From the NCBI GenBank assembly GCA_964640655.1, contig CAZXFT010000005.1:99929-163928 (forward strand): a stretch of DNA of 64,000 nucleotides, given 5' to 3'. Made by a program: the position numbers and the translations under genes. The first letter of the stretch is position 1; each line of letters starts with the position of its first letter. Positions 2,968 to 36,622 of the stretch are shown here, in pieces. This DNA comes from an uncultured Bifidobacteriaceae bacterium (GTDB lineage Bacteria; Bacteroidota; Bacteroidia; Chitinophagales; UBA10324). Below the pieces are notes generated by a model. That model did not search any database, was not told where the DNA came from, and worked only from the letters and a program-made list of their open reading frames with translations.

Positions 2968-5091
2968 TTAAAAGAAATTATAACGCAGATCTTCTACTTT
3001 GAGTCGTTTTTTCAAAGCGTCTGTTAGTCCGTATTCTACACGAGGTGCAAGATTACGTGCCAAGTCAGATTTTTCGTTGCTATAATCTGCCACAGGTGCT
3101 GGGCTGGTTTTACCAAGCATCTTTACTACAAAAACGTAGTTATTACCAATAATTGGAGCTGAAACCGTATTTTCTTTAATAGCGTTCAGGTTACCAATCA
3201 ATGCATTGTCAACTCCTATACCCATGATGTAAGAATCTGCAAAGTTGGTTTCCGGTACGGGTTTAATTTCTAGACCATACTTTGAAGCTATCGATTCCAA
3301 AGTGGTATTCATTTGTCCGGCTGCTGCCAATTCTGCAGCTATCTGAGCACCTTTTTTGCGGTTGCGCAGAAGTGGCTCAACCTGTGCACGGGCATTATTA
3401 ACCGATTGAGTGCCTTCAGGACGAATTTCAACCAAATGAGCTACTACATAATTGCTTCCTGCACTGAAAACAGGAGAAATTGAACCTGCTTCATTTTTAT
3501 ATGCCCAAGTTACCAACTCGCGCGCACCGTCCAATCCAGAAAGTTGATAATCGCTTTTGCGAACCGCATCTGCTGTACGTTTGATAAACTTTGGATTATC
3601 GGTAAATGCCTGATTAAATGATTCAGGTGTATTGAATTTGGATGCAAACTGATTGGCTTGTTCAAAATATCCTTTATCCGTTTTTGAACTTGGTTCTACT
3701 TTACGAGTAAATGAATAGTAGCGAACAGATGGAGAATTTTTTACCGCTTCTGTGATTTTCACAATATGGTAACCAAACTCGGTCTTGATTAATTTCATAT
3801 CTCCTTGATTGCCGGCAAAGAACAGGAAGTTATTGAATGGCTTCACCGTCATACCTTGTTTGATAAAGCCAAGGTCACCACCCTTTTCAGCGCTGCCTTT
3901 ATCGTCAGAGTATGTTTTAGCCAACTCTTCAAAAGCAGCACCTTTAGCGATCAGATTTAATACACTGTCTGCACGGTATTTAATCTTTAATGTATCGGCA
4001 ATTCCCTGAGTAGAGAATAAAATATGGCTGGCTTTAACCGAATCGGCCAATGTTATACGGTCAACTATTTTGCAAATCACAAAATCGTTACCATCCTGAA
4101 TGGGGCCAATGATGCTGCCAATAGGTTGGCTGAACAGTCCCGGTTTTATAGCAGACTTATCTATAGCTGACTCAGGATAATACATTTCATCCAAAGCGCG
4201 GTCGGCATTCATTTTCACATAGTTAGTATCAAGGTCCGGAGCACTTAATTTTGCTAATGCATCAAAAACAAAAGTTCGAGCAACGTCAGTATCAGAAGAC
4301 GACGGTTGAACGGTGAATACAACAAACTCAAGTTTACGATTCTCTTCCTGCTTAAACTTTTCTTTATTCTTATTGATATACTGTTGAATCTCGTCGTCAC
4401 TGATCTTTATTGTTGAATCAGCAATGTTGCTGTAAGGAATGGCTACGTACTCAAAAGAGAATTTGGTGTTACGCTCGTTGTATGAGTTCTCAGCGTACCA
4501 TTTTGGAATGTAAATACCGTTTTTAAATGCAGTACGTAGTTTGGTGGACAAACGGTCTTCGTTTACAAAGCGTTCAAAGTTTACCCAACGGGTCCGTTTC
4601 TCATTCACGTCTTCGCCATTTACAGAACGATCTAATTGACTAATGTAATTCTTCACCGCATTAGGGTCAAAAATTCCGGTATTTGGGTTAGTAAATGTTT
4701 TTTTGATTTCAGCATTAGGATCATTTCCAAAGAAAAGGTCTTTCATCTCCGCTTCAGAAACTGAGATTCCAAGTTTCTCATACAAATCGCTGTTGATTTT
4801 ATCCTGTATCAACTGAACCCAGGCCTGCTCTCGAATACTATATGTAGTATTATCGTCCATTGGACCAGGATTGTTGAGTTTATAGTTGACCATGAGTTGT
4901 TCTACCTTACTCATATACTCATTGTAATGAATTTTTTCACCGTCTATCACTCCGACTACATCACGGTTTCCGGTTAAAAGATTAGACTGGGAATCAAGTG
5001 CTGCCTGAAGAATGAAGACCACCAAACTGAAGCCAATCAATATCACGAGAATAGGGCCTAATTTGTTTCGGATGTCTATAAATACTGCCAT
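2968..5091 (-). CDS. Periplasmic chaperone / peptidyl-prolyl isomerase, PpiD/SurA-like
   Basis: 707 aa with an N-terminal membrane anchor. Parvulin-type PPIase core reads ASHILF...GGDLGF...FGYHIVK. Confidence 0.8.
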   Translation of the reverse strand: MAVFIDIRNKLGPILVILIGFSLVVFILQAALDSQSNLLTGNRDVVGVIDGEKIHYNEYMSKVEQLMVNYKLNNPGPMDDNTTYSIREQAWVQLIQDKINSDLYEKLGISVSEAEMKDLFFGNDPNAEIKKTFTNPNTGIFDPNAVKNYISQLDRSVNGEDVNEKRTRWVNFERFVNEDRLSTKLRTAFKNGIYIPKWYAENSYNERNTKFSFEYVAIPYSNIADSTIKISDDEIQQYINKNKEKFKQEENRKLEFVVFTVQPSSSDTDVARTFVFDALAKLSAPDLDTNYVKMNADRALDEMYYPESAIDKSAIKPGLFSQPIGSIIGPIQDGNDFVICKIVDRITLADSVKASHILFSTQGIADTLKIKYRADSVLNLIAKGAAFEELAKTYSDDKGSAEKGGDLGFIKQGMTVKPFNNFLFFAGNQGDMKLIKTEFGYHIVKITEAVKNSPSVRYYSFTRKVEPSSKTDKGYFEQANQFASKFNTPESFNQAFTDNPKFIKRTADAVRKSDYQLSGLDGARELVTWAYKNEAGSISPVFSAGSNYVVAHLVEIRPEGTQSVNNARAQVEPLLRNRKKGAQIAAELAAAGQMNTTLESIASKYGLEIKPVPETNFADSYIMGIGVDNALIGNLNAIKENTVSAPIIGNNYVFVVKMLGKTSPAPVADYSNEKSDLARNLAPRVEYGLTDALKKRLKVEDLRYNFF

Positions 5092-31212: not shown

Positions 31213-31262
31213 TCATCTTGTCATCTTACTTTTGGTTTGATTTTCGTTATTCGAAAAACATT

Positions 31263-33230
31263 ATGTTACAGCGCTTCTTCTCATATATAACTATTTTTCT
31301 TATTACATCATCAAATATGTTGTATGGGCAAAACAGTGAGAATGGATATTGGTTGCCCAATAAGGGTACTCTGCGTGTGCTTCTCGTCTATGCTGAGGTA
31401 ATCGGTGACCCCAACTACACCAACGTAAATGAAAGTAGTTGGCCTGCCGGAGACTTGCCACAGAATCCTGATTTATACTTTAACAATGGCACGAATGAAG
31501 AAGGAATGCTTACCAGATACTTTCGAGAAGCCAGTTTTGGCACTTACAATCTTGAAGGTGATTACTTTCCATATCTAATTCAGATTGATGCACAGGACGC
31601 AGGTTACGGTAGTATGAAATCTGTTCTGAAGAAACTCGATGAGATAAAAGTGAAAAAGCTGCGCACAGCAAATGGATACTTACTCAATAAAGATTTTGAT
31701 TCCTGGACTACCACAAGTTTTGGCACTCAAAAAGTTAATGTACCTGACAGTTTGTTAGATGTAATTATGGTAGTATGGAGAGTGAACTCAAAATTATCCC
31801 CTTCAACTAACTCAGGCTATTGCGCTACCGGAAATATGAAGCAAAATTTTCGTGAGTTTAACGGGGTGAATTGCTACAGTGAGTTTGTCAGTCATGCCAA
31901 CGATGCCTATACCATCATGCGTCATGAATTTTCGCATACACTATATGGTGGCAATAATTTTCATACGGCAGGTTGCGGTGCAGGAAAGCGAACATTTATG
32001 CCAAGCATTACCGGTTACAGCAATATGAGCAGTTGGGACAATATTGGGCAAGCTTTTAACGGCTGGGATCGCTGGCGTATGGGATGGAAAAACGAAAACA
32101 AAGAATTTGATATCAGCTCATGGACTAAGGATGGTATCTATTATAAGGAGTTCGACTTCGAAAATTTCAGCATCAAATCTCAAGGTGGCGACAGTATTTT
32201 TTATATCCGCGATTTCCGAACTACCGGAGATGCCATTCGTATTCAACTGCCCGGCCCGGACTCACCACAACTAAAACAATACTTATGGTTAGAGTACAGA
32301 ACGGATAGCTCCTTATTCGATATAGCTTTTCAAAAAAGGAGCGGATTGTATGCTTACATTCAGGTTGGTAAAGACAATAAGGCAGATATGTTTATGAACA
32401 GCAACAACTCTCCGGGTAATTATTTGTACTTCCATACTGCAGTGGGTCGCTTCGACTTCACATATAGCAAAGACAAAAACAATAAATACACACTGGTACA
32501 CGACGATAAGTTTCCAAACCCACTTACTGGGAATCATTATCTGATGAGACCCATAGACGATTTAAATCTGGACGGAAACCTTACCGACAGCGAATTGATA
32601 TTACCTGAATTTATTGAACGCAAGTATGAAAAGATAAATGCATACCCAGCCTTTGGAAGTGAAAACGATGCTTTCAGATATAGCAATAAAAACATCATCA
32701 GTATTCAAAGTAACCCATCGGCATTTAATGTTACAACTTACAATTTTCCGAATCACAGTAAAACACCATTTGATACCGATACCATATATATCAGCGGTTT
32801 AAGCATTCAGGTAGTTGACTCTACTTACAATGTCATCAAGGGAAAAACCAGTCCTACTCTTTCCATCAAAATAAAGTGGAACGATTACGACATCAGTAAA
32901 GCTGTTCGTTGGTGTGGTAATATTGTGCTGAGATCATTCAGTGAAAACACAGTACTCAACATTAAGAACGGAGGAGAGCTTTTGTTAGACCGGGGATTGT
33001 CCCCTACTCAGCACAACATCAATAAAACTGACCCTTATGATGGCAAATTATTTTTCACACAACCTACAGTGATGGTTTGCGAAGCAGGAACTACACTGCG
33101 AATAGAAAGCGGAGCTAAACTTACTTTAATAAATAAATCGAAGCTGATCATTAAAAAAGGAGCTGAGCTGATTATGGAGCGCGGCGCGTTGCTGAATGTG
33201 GAAGATGGCAGTGAGGTGATTTATGAATAA
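31263..33230 (+). CDS. Secreted putative zinc metalloprotease (HExxH)
   Basis: Signal peptide when started at ATG 31263 (MLQRFFSYITIFLITSSNMLYGQ). A single HExxH site reads MRHEFSHTLYGGNNFH. The family (M6-like?) is not certain. Confidence 0.45.
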   Translation: MLQRFFSYITIFLITSSNMLYGQNSENGYWLPNKGTLRVLLVYAEVIGDPNYTNVNESSWPAGDLPQNPDLYFNNGTNEEGMLTRYFREASFGTYNLEGDYFPYLIQIDAQDAGYGSMKSVLKKLDEIKVKKLRTANGYLLNKDFDSWTTTSFGTQKVNVPDSLLDVIMVVWRVNSKLSPSTNSGYCATGNMKQNFREFNGVNCYSEFVSHANDAYTIMRHEFSHTLYGGNNFHTAGCGAGKRTFMPSITGYSNMSSWDNIGQAFNGWDRWRMGWKNENKEFDISSWTKDGIYYKEFDFENFSIKSQGGDSIFYIRDFRTTGDAIRIQLPGPDSPQLKQYLWLEYRTDSSLFDIAFQKRSGLYAYIQVGKDNKADMFMNSNNSPGNYLYFHTAVGRFDFTYSKDKNNKYTLVHDDKFPNPLTGNHYLMRPIDDLNLDGNLTDSELILPEFIERKYEKINAYPAFGSENDAFRYSNKNIISIQSNPSAFNVTTYNFPNHSKTPFDTDTIYISGLSIQVVDSTYNVIKGKTSPTLSIKIKWNDYDISKAVRWCGNIVLRSFSENTVLNIKNGGELLLDRGLSPTQHNINKTDPYDGKLFFTQPTVMVCEAGTTLRIESGAKLTLINKSKLIIKKGAELIMERGALLNVEDGSEVIYE

Positions 33231-33368
33231 TGTCACTTTACTGAAGCAGGAACAAAATTAAGAGTAAGGTTTATTTTGACTATGCAGGATTGCAGTAAAA
33301 TTTTCTTTACTTTACTAGTCAAAATAACTTGCGCTATGAATCAATGTAATAATAACATACATACAATT

Positions 33369-35648
33369 ATGCAAATTCTTAGCCGAACATACTCCAAATG
33401 TTATTTTATCCTAGCATTACTGCCCGGGTTATCAATCCTTTTTACACTGCCCGAACACTCTAAGGCAGCATGTGCTCAAAACGTAACACTAAGCAGTAAT
33501 CCATCACCCATAGCCAATCAATATCCTGCGGATACTTATATTACATTTACGATTACAATAGGTGGATATACCCAAATTGCATCTAATTGGCTTCACTCTA
33601 TAGTATTGAACCTTGATAATAATTGGGATGCTACAACTATTACACCTGTCAGTATACCTAATTCAGTCAGTGGTAATGGCAATTGGGGTTATTATCCAAC
33701 TGTTTTATCGACCGGAAGTGGTATTACTTATGGACCTGGTTTTTATTTTGATTATAATACAACTATCAATCTTAATGACGGAAATCCGGGTAATAACTTT
33801 GGTGACCAAAATATTAATAATCAGGGTGTATGGGTATTTGTATTTAAGATTAAAACGGCAACAAGTGCTTCATCCATTCCACTAAACATTACTTTCTGTG
33901 TAAATGGCGATGGTACAACTGGTTCTTGGAATTCAGGCGGACTAACATGCTCTTGCGACGCATTCAATTTTTCTTCTTTAATCAGCAACAATCCTTGTCA
34001 GGCTTCCTTTAGCATTTCTGGATGGCAATATGCAGGATGGCCTATCAATTTTTCGGGTAATGGCAGTCCTTCTTCGGCTACATCTCAGTGGTGGATGAGT
34101 GATGGATTAACTTCATCTAACCAATCCCTTAGTCATACTTTCTTTTCTCCGGATACTTATACTATTTGTTATGCAGTAGTTGAAAATGGATTCTGTGCCG
34201 ACACACTGTGTATGCCGCTTACCATAGTAGAACCGGTACTCAGTTATTTAAATTACTATCCGTTTCATGTAATCGGGAATATATTTTACGATACGAACCA
34301 AGATGGTATTCATCAACCCTATGAAAATTGGATAAACAACTTAGCTATAAGCACATCTTGCGCCGGTGCTACGTATTATACAAATAATGACGGATCGTTT
34401 AACCTTGGTATTCTTGCGGGCAACTGTTCGATTAGCCCACAAATAAACACTGCCTACAGCATAACAAGCGGGCAAGATTTGCAAAATATTATTATTGATA
34501 CTTCTGTAATTAACTTAGGAAACATAGGCATCTATGCTCCAGATGAATATTGGAATCCTGAAATAACACTTACTCAAAGCTTAATACAGTGTAATATAGA
34601 TGCTATCTACATTTTGCAAGTTAAAAACCAAAGCAATCAAAATGCAAATACAGTCGTTACACTGAGCGGCAGTGATGATTTCTTATCGCACGTATCCTTG
34701 TACGAACCGGTTGATACTGTGGGATTATCCAGCATTTTAATCTCAACTGCAATTAATCCAAGTTTGCTGATAACACCAACTAACAGCGGAGCTGGATTTA
34801 TAACTTATGACTTGGCGACAATGACTCCCTTTCAAACAAACAACTATCTAATACTCTATGACTATCCGGTTGTTGCTTTTGATACCGTAGCTTTTGAAGC
34901 CTCATGCATATTTAATAATATAACAAATTCTACATCAATCGTTGATAGTTTATTCCATATAGTTGCTTGCTCTTATGACCCAAATAGCAAAGAATCATTG
35001 CCTAATAAAGGTGGTCTCTATACAGCGGTGCAGCAAGGCGAAGAAATTGTTTATACTATCAATTTTCAGAATACGGGCAACGCACCTGCTCATGTGGTGG
35101 TGATTAAAGACACATTATCTGAATATATAGATGCATCAAGTTTCGTATTTTTATATGGATTGCACCCTGTTGAGGTATTAAGGAATGGATTCCTTCTGGA
35201 ATTTATACATCTGAATATAATGCTACCAGATAGCAGCAGTAACGAAGAAGAGAGTAAAGGATTTGTAAAATTTAAAGTACGTCTAAAGAATAATTTACCG
35301 GAAAGCACTTCAATCTTGAACAATGCTGCTATATACTTTGATCTTAACGAACCTATTATTACCAACACTACGCAACATCACATACCACTAATTATAAATG
35401 ATAATAAATCTATTAGTAACAACAACGACATAAATGTGTATCCAAACCCTACGTCGCTGGTGTTGTACATAAGCAGCGGTGCGGCATTGGGGGATGTAGT
35501 TCTGTATGATTTACCTGGTAGAGTGTTGCTGGAGATGAACAAGGTGAATAAGCATCAGGTTAGCATAGATATGGGAGCACTGGCTGATGGCGTATACTTC
35601 TTAAAGGCAGGAAGGCATAAGATGGTGAAGGTGATTAAGGGGAAATGA
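33369..35648 (+). CDS. Large secreted surface protein with a T9SS C-terminal sorting domain
   Basis: C-terminus NVYPNPTSLVLYISS...LADGVYFLKAGRHKMVKVIKGK matches the Por secretion tail pattern. An internal CSYDPNSKE conserved-repeat region is present. Start set at ATG 33369 to give a signal peptide. Confidence 0.65.
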   Translation: MQILSRTYSKCYFILALLPGLSILFTLPEHSKAACAQNVTLSSNPSPIANQYPADTYITFTITIGGYTQIASNWLHSIVLNLDNNWDATTITPVSIPNSVSGNGNWGYYPTVLSTGSGITYGPGFYFDYNTTINLNDGNPGNNFGDQNINNQGVWVFVFKIKTATSASSIPLNITFCVNGDGTTGSWNSGGLTCSCDAFNFSSLISNNPCQASFSISGWQYAGWPINFSGNGSPSSATSQWWMSDGLTSSNQSLSHTFFSPDTYTICYAVVENGFCADTLCMPLTIVEPVLSYLNYYPFHVIGNIFYDTNQDGIHQPYENWINNLAISTSCAGATYYTNNDGSFNLGILAGNCSISPQINTAYSITSGQDLQNIIIDTSVINLGNIGIYAPDEYWNPEITLTQSLIQCNIDAIYILQVKNQSNQNANTVVTLSGSDDFLSHVSLYEPVDTVGLSSILISTAINPSLLITPTNSGAGFITYDLATMTPFQTNNYLILYDYPVVAFDTVAFEASCIFNNITNSTSIVDSLFHIVACSYDPNSKESLPNKGGLYTAVQQGEEIVYTINFQNTGNAPAHVVVIKDTLSEYIDASSFVFLYGLHPVEVLRNGFLLEFIHLNIMLPDSSSNEEESKGFVKFKVRLKNNLPESTSILNNAAIYFDLNEPIITNTTQHHIPLIINDNKSISNNNDINVYPNPTSLVLYISSGAALGDVVLYDLPGRVLLEMNKVNKHQVSIDMGALADGVYFLKAGRHKMVKVIKGK

Positions 35649-35751
35649 TGCAGTTGAACACACTAATCTATTGCTCTTAATAGCTTCTCCATACAAGAGA
35701 GATTTGGTATTACAAACGAAGAACTACGAATAACAGAAACAACGGGGCTTT

Positions 35752-36234
35752 TTATTTGCGAATCTGCAAGTCGAGTGCTCTGTCGAAACTTTCTTCTAAG
35801 GATAATAGAGTTTCGGTGCGTTGTATGCCTTTGATGCGCTGAATCTTATCGTGCAGTACTTCACGCAGGTGCTGCGTGTCTCTGCAAATAATTTTAAGAA
35901 ACATACTATAAGCTCCGGTAGTGTAATGCAGGTTAACAACTTCAGGTATCTGCGCCAGTGCCTTGGCTACTTCGTCGTACAAAGAATTTTTTTCCAGATA
36001 TATTCCAAGAAAGGCAGTGATATCGAAGCCCAGTTTTGTATAGTCCACTATAGTTTGATAGCGCTTGGGTACTTTCAGTTTTTCCAACTTGCGCATACGT
36101 ACATGCACCGTACCCGGAGACACAAACAACTTCTTAGCAATGTCAGTATAAGACATACGTGCATCTTTAATTAGCATCTGCAGTATTTGCAAATCCACAT
36201 TGTCAAAATCGTAATTTGTGGTTCGTTTTTGCAT
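35752..36234 (-). CDS. Lrp/AsnC family transcriptional regulator
   Basis: N-terminal HTH (LDNVDLQILQMLIKDARMSYTDIAKKLFVSPGTVHVRMRKLE) plus a C-terminal RAM/AsnC_trans_reg domain. Confidence 0.88.
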   Translation of the reverse strand: MQKRTTNYDFDNVDLQILQMLIKDARMSYTDIAKKLFVSPGTVHVRMRKLEKLKVPKRYQTIVDYTKLGFDITAFLGIYLEKNSLYDEVAKALAQIPEVVNLHYTTGAYSMFLKIICRDTQHLREVLHDKIQRIKGIQRTETLLSLEESFDRALDLQIRK

Positions 36235-36359
36235 ATTATTTTACCGTTTATTCAATATTAGTGCATTATTATTAATGTTTCTGTAATTTTTTGTATGTTT
36301 CTTTACATTTAGTTCATATAATTAGAATAATCTTTCACATTTGCATCAGTTCTTTAATA

Positions 36360-36505
36360 CTGTAGGGTGTTGAAACCGGCAGACAAGCCCTCTCGTCTCG
36401 GGGGTAGTGACAAGGGGATAAACACAGGTTAATGGGTTGACCACTAATCAAATTTTTGACCTGCGGCTAACCGCACTTTGAAGGTTCGAGTCCTTCCCCT
36501 ACAGC
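36360..36505 (+). ncRNA. Atypical, oversized tRNA-like RNA (not a canonical decoding tRNA)
   Basis: Acceptor helix TGTAGGG (36361-67) / CCCTACA (36497-503). T arm GAAGG-TTCGAGT-CCTTC (36480-96). U8, A14, G18G19 (36378-79), A21 and G26 equivalents are present. A 5-bp stem 36388-92/36400-04 closes the 7-nt loop TCGTCTC. A 75-nt extra region spans 36405-36479 and includes hairpin TGCGG-CTAA-CCGCA (36462-75). A terminator follows. Confidence 0.6.
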
Positions 36506-36534
36506 AAACGGAGTAATAATGTTTTTTTGGTGTA

Positions 36535-36567
36535 CCCACTGATGCAATTGTATCAGTGGGTTTTTTT
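36535..36567 (+). terminator. Intrinsic terminator downstream of the tRNA-like RNA
   Basis: CCCACTGAT-GCAATTGT-ATCAGTGGG hairpin followed by TTTTTTT. Confidence 0.8.
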
Positions 36568-36622
36568 GTCGCGTCATCCCTTCCACATTACTGCTTATTT
36601 TCGTGGCGATTCATTGTTAACT

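Follow-up and report, generated by a model that had tools for sequence, protein, structure and literature searches.

A conserved tRNA-like RNA gene family paired with AsnC-type regulators in Bacteroidota chromosomes and found in phage tRNA arrays

RESULTS

A tRNA-shaped RNA gene lies opposite an AsnC-type regulator gene

We analyzed a window of 64,000 nucleotides (nt) from an uncultured bacterium of the Chitinophagales (GTDB lineage UBA10324; GenBank assembly GCA_964640655.1, contig CAZXFT010000005.1, positions 99,929 to 163,928). Coordinates are positions in this 64-kb window, and positions within the RNA follow tRNA numbering. A ~145-nt tRNA-shaped RNA gene occupies 36361 to 36505 of the plus strand. 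A 126-nt spacer separates it from a divergent gene on the minus strand (35752 to 36234) for an orthologue of the transcription regulator AsnC (Pfam HTH_AsnC-type and AsnC_trans_reg domains). A first-pass annotation had called the element an oversized tRNA-like RNA gene, a description now borne out by a family of homologues, by covariation and by a score of 140.3 bits (E about 1e-36) against R1, the covariance model built from the family. The family occurs in the chromosomes of Chitinophagales and Cytophagales and in many phages, and we regard it as virtually certain that it is a real, conserved and so far unannotated family of tRNA-like RNA genes.

The acceptor stem pairs U1 G2 U3 A4 G5 G6 G7 (36361 to 36367) with 36497 to 36503 in a perfect 7-bp helix directly abutted by the T arm; its seven pairs form in 100% of members, and pairs 3 to 7 covary. 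U8, G9, the D arm and G26 follow (36368 to 36387). The D stem has 3 bp (36370 to 36372 with 36384 to 36386) and an 11-nt loop, AAACCGGCAGA, holding G18 G19 at 36378 and 36379, which reads as a tRNA-Leu-like class II pattern. The anticodon-like arm (36388 to 36404) consists of the stem CCCUC/GGGGG (36388 to 36392 with 36400 to 36404) and the loop U32 C33 G34 U35 C36 U37 C38, with GUC at 36395 to 36397. Between this arm and the T arm lies a variable-arm domain of 75 nt (36405 to 36479). It begins with helix V1 (36406 to 36409 with 36474 to 36477), a 4-nt bulge and helix V2 (36415 and 36416 with 36471 and 36472), whose third pair, G36414/G36473, is mismatched in the window. Junction GAUAAAC (36417 to 36423) leads to helix V3 (36425 to 36432 with 36456 to 36463), which encloses the module GGGUUGACCAC (36434 to 36444) and an AU-rich tip (36445 to 36455); junction GCUAA (36466 to 36470) completes the domain. 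V1, V2 and V3 show compensatory changes in the family, and both junctions and the module are conserved blocks. The T arm GAAGG-UUCGAGU-CCUUC (36480 to 36496) has a covarying stem and the conserved loop UUCGANU. The gene ends with the 3′ acceptor strand (36497 to 36503), discriminator G73 (36504) and C74 (36505); CAGC is invariant in sets not selected on it, and CCA is not encoded.

Bacteroidota promoters have the −7 consensus TAnnTTTG, and a candidate box, CACATTTG, can be read at 36336 to 36343, 17 nt before the mature 5′ end. A leader motif, GTTCTTTAA (36347 to 36355), lies just 5′ of that end. Downstream, the intrinsic terminator noticed in the first-pass annotation extends from 36534 to 36568, with a 12-bp stem and 4-nt loop (hairpin 36534 to 36561) before a T run; comparable terminators follow many bacterial homologues. 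The promoter-like box and the terminator mark the RNA as a predicted separate transcription unit. The minimum-energy fold of the window RNA alone is unremarkable (z = −1.6), and the case for the RNA therefore rests on comparison with its relatives. Its family fold has an energy of −30.1 kcal/mol, versus −47.0 for the minimum.

The family is missed by RNA detectors and widely distributed

ARAGORN reported 0 tRNA or transfer-messenger RNA (tmRNA) genes in the window and never called any family member. Rfam 15 gave nothing in the window at the gathering threshold and only noise at E ≤ 10, with no tRNA match on the RNA, and searches of 10 phage and 5 bacterial loci at gathering and E-value thresholds gave no match on it. 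No tRNA match fell on the RNA at E ≤ 1 either. Of the checks against known families proposed in the first-pass annotation, those by ARAGORN and Rfam thus returned no assignment. True tmRNAs in neighboring phage DNA were found by ARAGORN and Rfam. Our literature searches turned up no description of the RNA family; DNAVirus_1850, an IMG/VR candidate for which Fremin et al. (2023; PMC10690425) list a single overlap with tRNA-Asp, may be the same family.

Synteny via prolyl oligopeptidase, whose gene neighbors the RNA in the window, revealed no RNA homologue in the two closest Chitinophagales metagenome-assembled genomes (L001 and L002, in our numbering of compared loci; 81 to 82% identity). There, the prolyl oligopeptidase gene directly follows the orthologue of window 31218 to 33230. 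Missing is a segment of 3.3 kb (33231 to 36570) with the gene for a DUF7619/type IX secretion system-tail protein, the regulator, the RNA and the terminator. Because this segment is absent between orthologous flanks, the asnC-RNA pair has been moved or lost in close relatives. Three same-strain contigs (L019 to L021) are identical to the window and hence carry no comparative information.

An exact 21-mer covering T arm and acceptor led to one IMG/VR contig with a full-length homologue that carries compensatory changes. Conserved-block patterns then recovered 82 and later at least 120 viral contigs, and a third pattern recovered at least 120 metagenome contigs, many of them presumably bacterial chromosomes since they span 0.1 to 1.4 Mb, far above most phage genomes. 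Removal of duplicates left at least 131 distinct viral and at least 95 distinct metagenomic sequences. Each search pattern fixes some bases; invariance was therefore read only from sets unselected on the positions concerned. A blastn search of 50,697 records of cultured phages (INPHARED) returned no family member and only T-arm fragments of mycobacteriophage tRNA-Asn. Cultured isolates carrying the RNA are Rhodocytophaga rosea, Fibrella aestuarina and Sporocytophaga myxococcoides.

Compensatory changes are found in all helices

The hand-drawn structure comprises seven helices (acceptor, D, anticodon-like, V1, V2, V3 and T) with 33 pairs. Aligned on this structure, 58 distinct phage sequences are paired in 97.2% of cells, compared with ~50% when partners are slid, and compensatory changes occur at 23 of the 33 pairs. 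The covariation score was 0.56 versus 0.07 to 0.12 for partners slid by 1 to 3 columns, a level that none of 500 shuffles reached (0/500), and RNAalifold agrees with most helices. When 84 distinct sequences, drawn mainly from AsnC-linked chromosomal loci and including the three isolates, were aligned by fitting to the model, 96.6% of cells paired (51 to 61% when slid) and 20 of 33 pairs had compensatory changes. D stems vary among TTG/CAA, ACG/CGT, GTG/CAC and AUG/CAU. The anticodon-like stem seemed invariant in the first set because the search pattern fixed it; it covaries in other sets (CCCUC/GGGGG, CCCAC/GUGGG, CCGUC/GACGG, CCGUA/UACGG and UCCGG/CCGGA).

Several claims of the first-pass annotation can be judged against this fold. 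Its acceptor, D, anticodon-like and T helices and the absent CCA were recovered on rereading the window sequence, and the covariation it had asked for in these helices and in the 75-nt insert is present, with homologues at hand and V1, V2 and V3 all compensatory. The D stem that it called weak is there, but it is real and covarying (TTG/CAA, ACG/CGT and GTG/CAC). An eighth acceptor pair, C36360:G36504, was abandoned: position −1 may be U, C, A or G in the family, and pairing with position 73 is not conserved. The proposed class-II-like hairpin TGCGG-CTAA-CCGCA conflicts with the family fold, in which GCUAA is a junction and the flanks belong to V1, V2 and V3. Nor is the gene a tRNA gene disrupted by an insertion: the 75-nt segment forms a domain of three covarying helices that is conserved across hundreds of homologues.

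Family members are 142 to 185 nt long. Their variable domain has a V1 of 4 bp, a 4-nt bulge, a V2 of 3 bp and a V3 of 6 to 9 bp. The purine-rich junction between V2 and V3 is GAUAAAC or AAAUAG, the distal module, which the tip follows, is GGGUUGACCAC or GGGGUAGACCACC, and the 3′ junction is GCUAA or UGAAU. Members score 76 to 160 bits with R1 and ordinary tRNAs at most 52; a few truncated matches and one tRNA-Asn relative (66 bits) score below the member range. Among L026, L028, L031, L033, L058 and others, one phage subfamily shows a U bulge on the 5′ side of the T stem, and in another subgroup the D loop contains an additional hairpin.

Aspartate anticodon identity is joined to an asparagine-type acceptor end

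Nucleotides were counted over 135 to 136 distinct sequences. Pair 1-72 is U-A and pair 2-71 is G-C in 134/134 each. Positions 8 and 9 are U and G, positions 34 to 36 are GUC, and positions 73 and 74 are G and C, in 135/135 each; position 38 is C in 132/135. Position 37 is U in 127 sequences, C in 7 and A in 1 (pyrimidine in 134/135), and position 33 is U in 96, C in 32, A in 6 and G in 1. Of 42 loops recovered from AsnC-linked chromosomal copies, 41 keep U33. The positions needed for decoding, U33 and purine 37, are those that are not conserved. The window loop UCGUCUC had been called abnormal in the first-pass annotation, and C33 and U37 are indeed unlike decoding tRNAs, but with C33 in 32 of 135 loops the window loop is a common variant and no lesion.

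The aspartate identity set consists of G73, G34, U35, C36 and C38 (PMC9976931), and the family keeps all five (135/135 for the first four, 132/135 for C38). Genuine tRNA-Asp genes in the same loci have G1-C72, G73 and the loop YUGUCAC; among ordinary tRNAs of these loci, U1-A72 together with G73 occurs in tRNA-Asn and in a single tRNA-Ala. U1-A72 lets the bacterial amidotransferase GatCAB amidate Asp on tRNA-Asn, and the G1-C72 and U20A of tRNA-Asp block it (PMC1635274; PMC9976931). Because the identity positions match Asp and U1-A72 with G73 matches tRNA-Asn, the RNA is by its nucleotides a chimera: a tRNA-Asp anticodon loop (A37 replaced by U), a tRNA-Asn-type acceptor end and a tRNA-Leu-like class II body. 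We consider it reasonably probable from these positions that the RNA is chargeable, with Asp identity, and non-decoding. Among the identities offered in the first-pass annotation, a non-decoding tRNA mimic fits best, given pyrimidine 37 in 134/135, a variable position 33 and invariant aspartate identity. Leucyl identity is excluded by G73, and seryl identity is partly excluded, position 72 being A and not C. A unifying role as substrate of tRNA-guanine transglycosylase (queuosine) is unlikely, since U33 is not conserved in phage copies.

The RNA shares with canonical tRNAs the 7-bp acceptor, a D arm with G18 G19, a UUCRANY T arm and U8; recognition by detectors as a ~70- to 95-nt cloverleaf, U33 and purine 37 are lacking. 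It has neither the G1-C72 strictly conserved in bacterial tRNA-Asp nor the A37 and class I size of that tRNA, and GUC in all members stands in place of the GUU of bacterial tRNA-Asn. The earlier exclusion of canonical tRNA, tRNA-Sec and tmRNA likewise held for the defining features that we tested.

An AsnC orthologue is the constant neighbor in chromosomes

The divergent Lrp/AsnC neighbor, mentioned in passing in the first-pass annotation, turned out to be the most informative clue. The best NCBIfam model for the window regulator is the AsnC equivalog NF008384 (150 bits). Regulators of the family score 150 to 177 bits, below the 227-bit equivalog cutoff of that model, and at most 83 bits with the Lrp, LrpA, LysM and ChrS models. 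The top PDB match of the window regulator is E. coli AsnC (2CG4; E 2.8e-29), with 40% identity over a gapless 148 amino acids (aa), and JGI names its homologues "regulator for asnA, asnC and gidA." These comparisons mark the regulator as AsnC-like and not just as a generic Lrp-type protein.

A gene for a regulator of ~157 aa lies on the opposite strand, ~125 to 150 nt upstream of the RNA, in 61 loci, one of them the window. Since the wider neighborhood varies (sufBC in 25 loci, an AMP-ligase in 21, trmB in 8, peroxiredoxin in 5; DUF7619 and prolyl oligopeptidase in the window), the conserved unit is the regulator-RNA pair, and the divergent AsnC orthologue is the only constant neighbor of the RNA in chromosomal loci. 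All three named isolates with ~65%-identical regulator orthologues (3/3) have the RNA divergently upstream: R. rosea (CP048222; R1, 132.9 bits), F. aestuarina BUZ 2 (HE796683; 113.3 bits) and S. myxococcoides (BBLT01000004; two tandem copies, 142.7 and 140.5 bits). In E. coli, a 151-nt spacer lies between the divergent genes asnC and asnA. The RNA, divergent from an AsnC orthologue at similar spacing (126 nt in the window), therefore sits in the place of asnA.

Bacterial copies have short leaders and their own terminators. Of 56 distinct bacterial loci, 28 have an NAnnTTTG box 11 to 140 nt before the RNA and 17 have GTTCTT within 45 nt upstream; GTTCTT precedes each copy of tandem pairs. In the window and many bacterial copies GTTCTT(T/A)AA directly adjoins the mature 5′ end, where it may act as a signal in the leader or for processing. 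About 20 bacterial loci have a 110-nt paralogue in tandem, preceding the 144-nt form (L206, 2372 to 2481 and 2504 to 2648; also L201, L202, L217, L236, L246 and others), and two full-length copies stand in tandem in Sporocytophaga (L319, 3514 to 3660 and 3712 to 3858), L200 and L275. In the 110-nt paralogues a CCC-GAAA-GGG hairpin replaces the distal module, and the GUC loop, V1, V2 and the junctions are kept. Because this GNRA hairpin stands in for the module, a ligand pocket in GGGUUGACCAC, as could be imagined for the tRNA-scaffolded aptamer offered in the first-pass annotation, is not universal. Pairing of the GUC loop with the invariant GAC of GGGUUGACCAC was rejected as a general feature: the flanks do not covary, and the 110-nt paralogues and L071 lack the module. 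The genes sufB-sufC-sufD-sufS come after the asnC-like gene, on its strand, in R. rosea (L316, 4001 to 8489), S. myxococcoides (L319, 4001 to 8465) and 25 metagenome loci, and in several Cytophagales the regulator might also control Fe-S cluster assembly.

Phage copies stand in tRNA arrays and carry palindromic tips

The IMG/VR loci are genuine phage DNA, with genes for terminase large subunit, PhoH, ThyX and exonucleases, and 111 of 164 contain tRNA genes. The RNA often lies 3 to 4 nt downstream of tRNA-Ser (at most 20 nt in 32 loci), and its gene end, N73-C followed mostly by A, is common to true tRNAs of the same arrays. This adjacency and the shared end argue for cotranscription and tRNA-type maturation of phage copies. 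Each phage locus has one full-length copy. Clustering of neighbors yielded only ordinary phage genes and no dedicated protein partner in phages.

A perfect palindrome of 6 to 12 nt that includes the would-be loop was found in 95 of 105 distinct phage tips, as 34 different sequences (for example, GCUUGCAAGC, GCCGGCCGGC and AAGCGCGCA). AsnC-linked chromosomal copies have such a tip in 12 of 40 cases, and the window has AAAUUU only. Since the tips, and by eye many of the D-loop insert hairpins, are palindromic, the sequences suggest RNA-RNA dimerization of phage copies. Copies with palindromic tips include L034 (211 to 354), L022 (4874 to 5022) and L028 (3622 to 3773). The tip palindrome AAGCGCGCA is identical to the HIV-1 dimerization loop.

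One phage lineage encodes, 6 to 500 nt upstream of the RNA, a 275-aa catalytic core of the asparaginyl-/aspartyl-tRNA synthetase (AsnRS/AspRS) type that lacks the anticodon-binding domain (class IIb, Asp/Asn/Lys type; L069, 7086 to 7913; L210, 289 to 1116; L214, 2673 to 3500; L297, 1510 to 2337). This synthetase-core family has at least 8,000 matches in marine phage contigs, usually with no related RNA within 3 kb. The nearest relative that ARAGORN recognizes is an 89-nt class-II-shaped phage tRNA-Asn(GUU) (L325, 4872 to 4960; same in L326) with U1-A72, G73-C74, the same D arm and U37, scoring 66 bits with R1. It lies 1 kb from a synthetase-core gene and directly before a SufE gene.

Further RNA genes were noticed in the compared loci. 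A second kind of oversize tRNA-like gene, also negative with ARAGORN, occurs in L038, L099, L135, L136, L139, L164, L185 and others. It keeps the frame AGUCAGG-UG-GCGGAAUUGGUAGACGC...ACAGGUUCGAAUCCUGU-CCUGACU-A73-C around a hypervariable middle of 40 to 100 nt, and 24 copies of 73 to 157 nt were seen in 10 loci, at most 6 per locus (for example, L136, 10651 to 10807; L135, 9979 to 10113). L185 (994 to 1108) has a tRNA-Leu(UAA)-like gene whose long variable arm is normal and whose anticodon loop holds an insertion of ~26 nt. In L022 another ARAGORN-negative tRNA-like gene (4695 to 4792, minus strand; acceptor GCUCAAG/CUUGAGC, T arm GGUGG-UUCGAAU-CCACC) comes immediately downstream of the family RNA. 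Two large lake-phage contigs, L151 (1007 to 1411) and L033 (1 to 301), carry GOLLD RNA (RF02032; 316 and 203 bits) no more than ~1 kb from the family RNA. Phage tmRNA genes are close to RNA-bearing tRNA arrays in L028, L035, L063, L072, L084 and L101.

DISCUSSION

The RNA is tRNA-like in shape and probably in processing, and it is a noncoding RNA with a possibly new function. Its closest counterparts are the tRNAs of the indirect AspRS-GatCAB pathway, with which it shares the L-shape core, G73 and a GUN-type anticodon loop, in addition to U1-A72 with tRNA-Asn, G34 U35 C36 C38 with tRNA-Asp and the N73-C74 end with neighboring tRNAs. Unlike them, it joins an Asn acceptor end to an Asp anticodon, carries U in place of A at position 37, and has a D arm of class II and a variable domain of 70 to 100 nt; ARAGORN and RF00005 miss it, and it probably does not decode. 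Like tRNA-Sec, it has a long variable arm and G73, would be charged and then converted, and is set apart by noncanonical features. It differs from tRNA-Sec in its 7/5 acceptor/T stems (8/5 or 9/4 there), GUC rather than UCA, a D stem of 3 rather than 6 bp, a variable region of three helices rather than one hairpin, and the absence of linked SelA/SelB-like partners. Species 1 RNA (rnaC) of phage T4, a stable RNA of ~140 nt, resembles it in its place among phage tRNA genes, its T arm and its terminal pairing, but it lacks the GUC arm and the conserved junctions. Homology to it was rejected, R1 missing rnaC (L195, 4909 to 5047) and matching only T4 tRNA-Leu and tRNA-Gln there. The tRNA-like domain of tmRNA, YrlA and the tRNA-like structures of plant viruses are likewise non-decoding with a tRNA acceptor/T shape, and the viral ones are aminoacylated. 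The family RNA, however, has no tag open reading frame and no G3-U70 (pair 3-70 is U-A), is below 300 nt and gave no tmRNA call with Rfam or ARAGORN; it has no Ro-binding stem or Rfam match that would ally it with YrlA; and, unlike the plant-virus structures, it is not a 3′ untranslated region. E. coli asnC-asnA offers the same arrangement, an AsnC orthologue divergent from its presumed target across ~125 to 150 nt, with the difference that the target here is an RNA gene and not asparagine synthetase A.

We propose that the RNA is an AsnC-controlled, tRNA-processed, AspRS-chargeable, non-decoding cofactor for GatCAB-dependent asparagine formation, a model to which we assign a probability of about 0.35. 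The AsnC-like regulator would control transcription of the RNA in response to asparagine, as AsnC does for divergent asnA in E. coli. The transcript would be matured like a tRNA, by RNase P at the 5′ end, 3′ trimming and completion of CCA. AspRS would aspartylate it, given the aspartate identity set G73, G34, U35, C36 and C38, and GatCAB could amidate the bound Asp to Asn, since U1-A72 stands where tRNA-Asp has G1-C72. With the Asp anticodon on a tRNA-Asn body, GatCAB would be supplied even by a discriminating AspRS. Pyrimidine 37, the nonconserved position 33 and the bulky variable domain would exclude the RNA from decoding and hence make it a biosynthetic or homeostatic Asn cofactor, not an adaptor. 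Phages would have captured it into their tRNA arrays, where palindromic tips may dimerize.

The distribution of the relevant genes has been surveyed by genus (PMC4206432, Table S1). Chitinophaga, Niastella, Spirosoma and Runella have gatCAB together with asnS, glnS and asnB and lack asnA; Pedobacter and Solitalea have gatCAB, asnS and glnS and lack both asnA and asnB. gatCAB is absent from Bacteroides, which has asnS, glnS, asnA and asnB, and from Flavobacterium, which has asnS, glnS and asnB and lacks asnA. The tRNA-Asn(GUU) relative and the phage synthetase core are weaker supports.

Several points weigh against the cofactor model. Each of its biochemical steps is one that we infer from sequence, it gives no account of how Asn would be released from the RNA, and a stoichiometric cofactor looks inefficient for bulk Asn synthesis. 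The gatCAB evidence comes from the surveyed genera. The asnC-like gene heads sufBCDS in Rhodocytophaga, Sporocytophaga and 25 metagenome loci, so that its regulon may be another one. AspRS might act less efficiently on the RNA, in which the G1-C72 and G10 of bacterial tRNA-Asp are missing or vary. The synthetase core adjoins the RNA in one lineage only; in 3 of 4 other lineages it has no related RNA within 3 kb. There is also no clear reason for hundreds of phages to carry an Asn cofactor, and the variation at position 33 and the palindromic tips of phage copies, which chromosomal copies lack, hint at a partly different role.

Phage tRNA arrays, the commonest home of the RNA, would suit a decoy or regulator that mimics tRNA-Asp without decoding and is no biosynthetic cofactor, a possible reading that we nevertheless doubt. 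In bacteria it would titrate or report on AspRS or uncharged-tRNA sensing; in phages it would soak up a host factor directed against tRNAs with a GUC/QUC anticodon, for example an anticodon nuclease or a modification enzyme. The family keeps the GUC loop, C38 and G73 while decoding positions 33 and 37 are noncanonical, and the palindromic tips (95/105) could dimerize to match dimeric class II synthetases. A nuclease decoy, however, should copy the whole target loop, and positions 33 and 37 differ from real tRNA-Asp; neighbor surveys of phage and bacterial loci found no defense or toxin genes consistently adjacent, and the invariant U1-A72 Asn-type end and the AsnC neighbor would stay unexplained. 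Those same tips, in 34 self-complementary sequences, could instead belong to a structural RNA or a ribonucleoprotein scaffold. Its tRNA shape would then be of use in processing and stability alone, and its variable domain would, for example, bind a protein or ligand or form homo-oligomers, as GOLLD and ROOL do. The conserved junctions GAUAAAC and GCUAA and module GGGUUGACCAC, the adjacent GOLLD RNA in L151 and L033 and the precedent of T4 rnaC, a 139-nt stable RNA in a tRNA cluster, favor such a scaffold. We hold it to be unlikely: a plain CCC-GAAA-GGG hairpin replaces the distal module in the 110-nt paralogues, the palindrome is mostly absent from chromosomal copies, and conservation is strictest at synthetase-identity positions, not in the variable domain.

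The remaining readings fare worse. A specialized decoding tRNA like tRNA-Sec, Asp-charged, possibly converted on the tRNA and delivered to special-context GAY codons by a factor that recognizes the large variable domain, would account for the class-II body with its determinants for on-tRNA conversion and for U33 in 41/42 AsnC-linked chromosomal loops, and ARAGORN calls the related phage tRNA-Asn(GUU) with U37 a tRNA. Against this, pyrimidine 37 is universal, phage copies do not conserve position 33, neighbor surveys linked neither a dedicated elongation factor nor a conversion enzyme to the RNA, and Asn at Asp codons would be harmful; we judge it improbable. Its extension, in which the RNA would serve as adaptor in a still undiscovered system for recoding or on-tRNA conversion, loaded by AspRS, converted by GatCAB or another enzyme and brought to selected GAY codons by a factor that reads the variable domain, with phages having their own versions, strikes us as very improbable. 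A decaying tRNA pseudogene, an insertion-broken tRNA or a DNA-level remnant of an integration site could appeal to the single G-G mismatch in the window V2 and to the 3.3-kb segment absent from the closest relatives. Set against full-length homologues in the hundreds, compensatory changes in each of the helices, conserved synteny with asnC, an own terminator and no integrase or repeats found, its likelihood is negligible, and we reject the pseudogene and disrupted-tRNA readings as refuted by the covariation in our alignments.

The family is a widespread structured RNA, absent from Rfam 15 and invisible to ARAGORN, in cultured Cytophagales and large phages, and its Asp anticodon identity on an Asn-type acceptor end is an unusual chimera. 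Should the cofactor model fail, it would still be a well-defined new noncoding RNA whose hosts can be cultured, for which a covariance model is ready and whose phage variants, with their palindromic tips, suggest dimerization. The AsnC partnership offers a testable answer to why Chitinophagales, Cytophagales and some Sphingobacteriales keep GatCAB despite having AsnRS and glutaminyl-tRNA synthetase (PMC4206432). If the model is true, this would be the first tRNA-like RNA dedicated to amino acid biosynthesis or homeostasis, not decoding, and a new kind of phage auxiliary metabolic gene.

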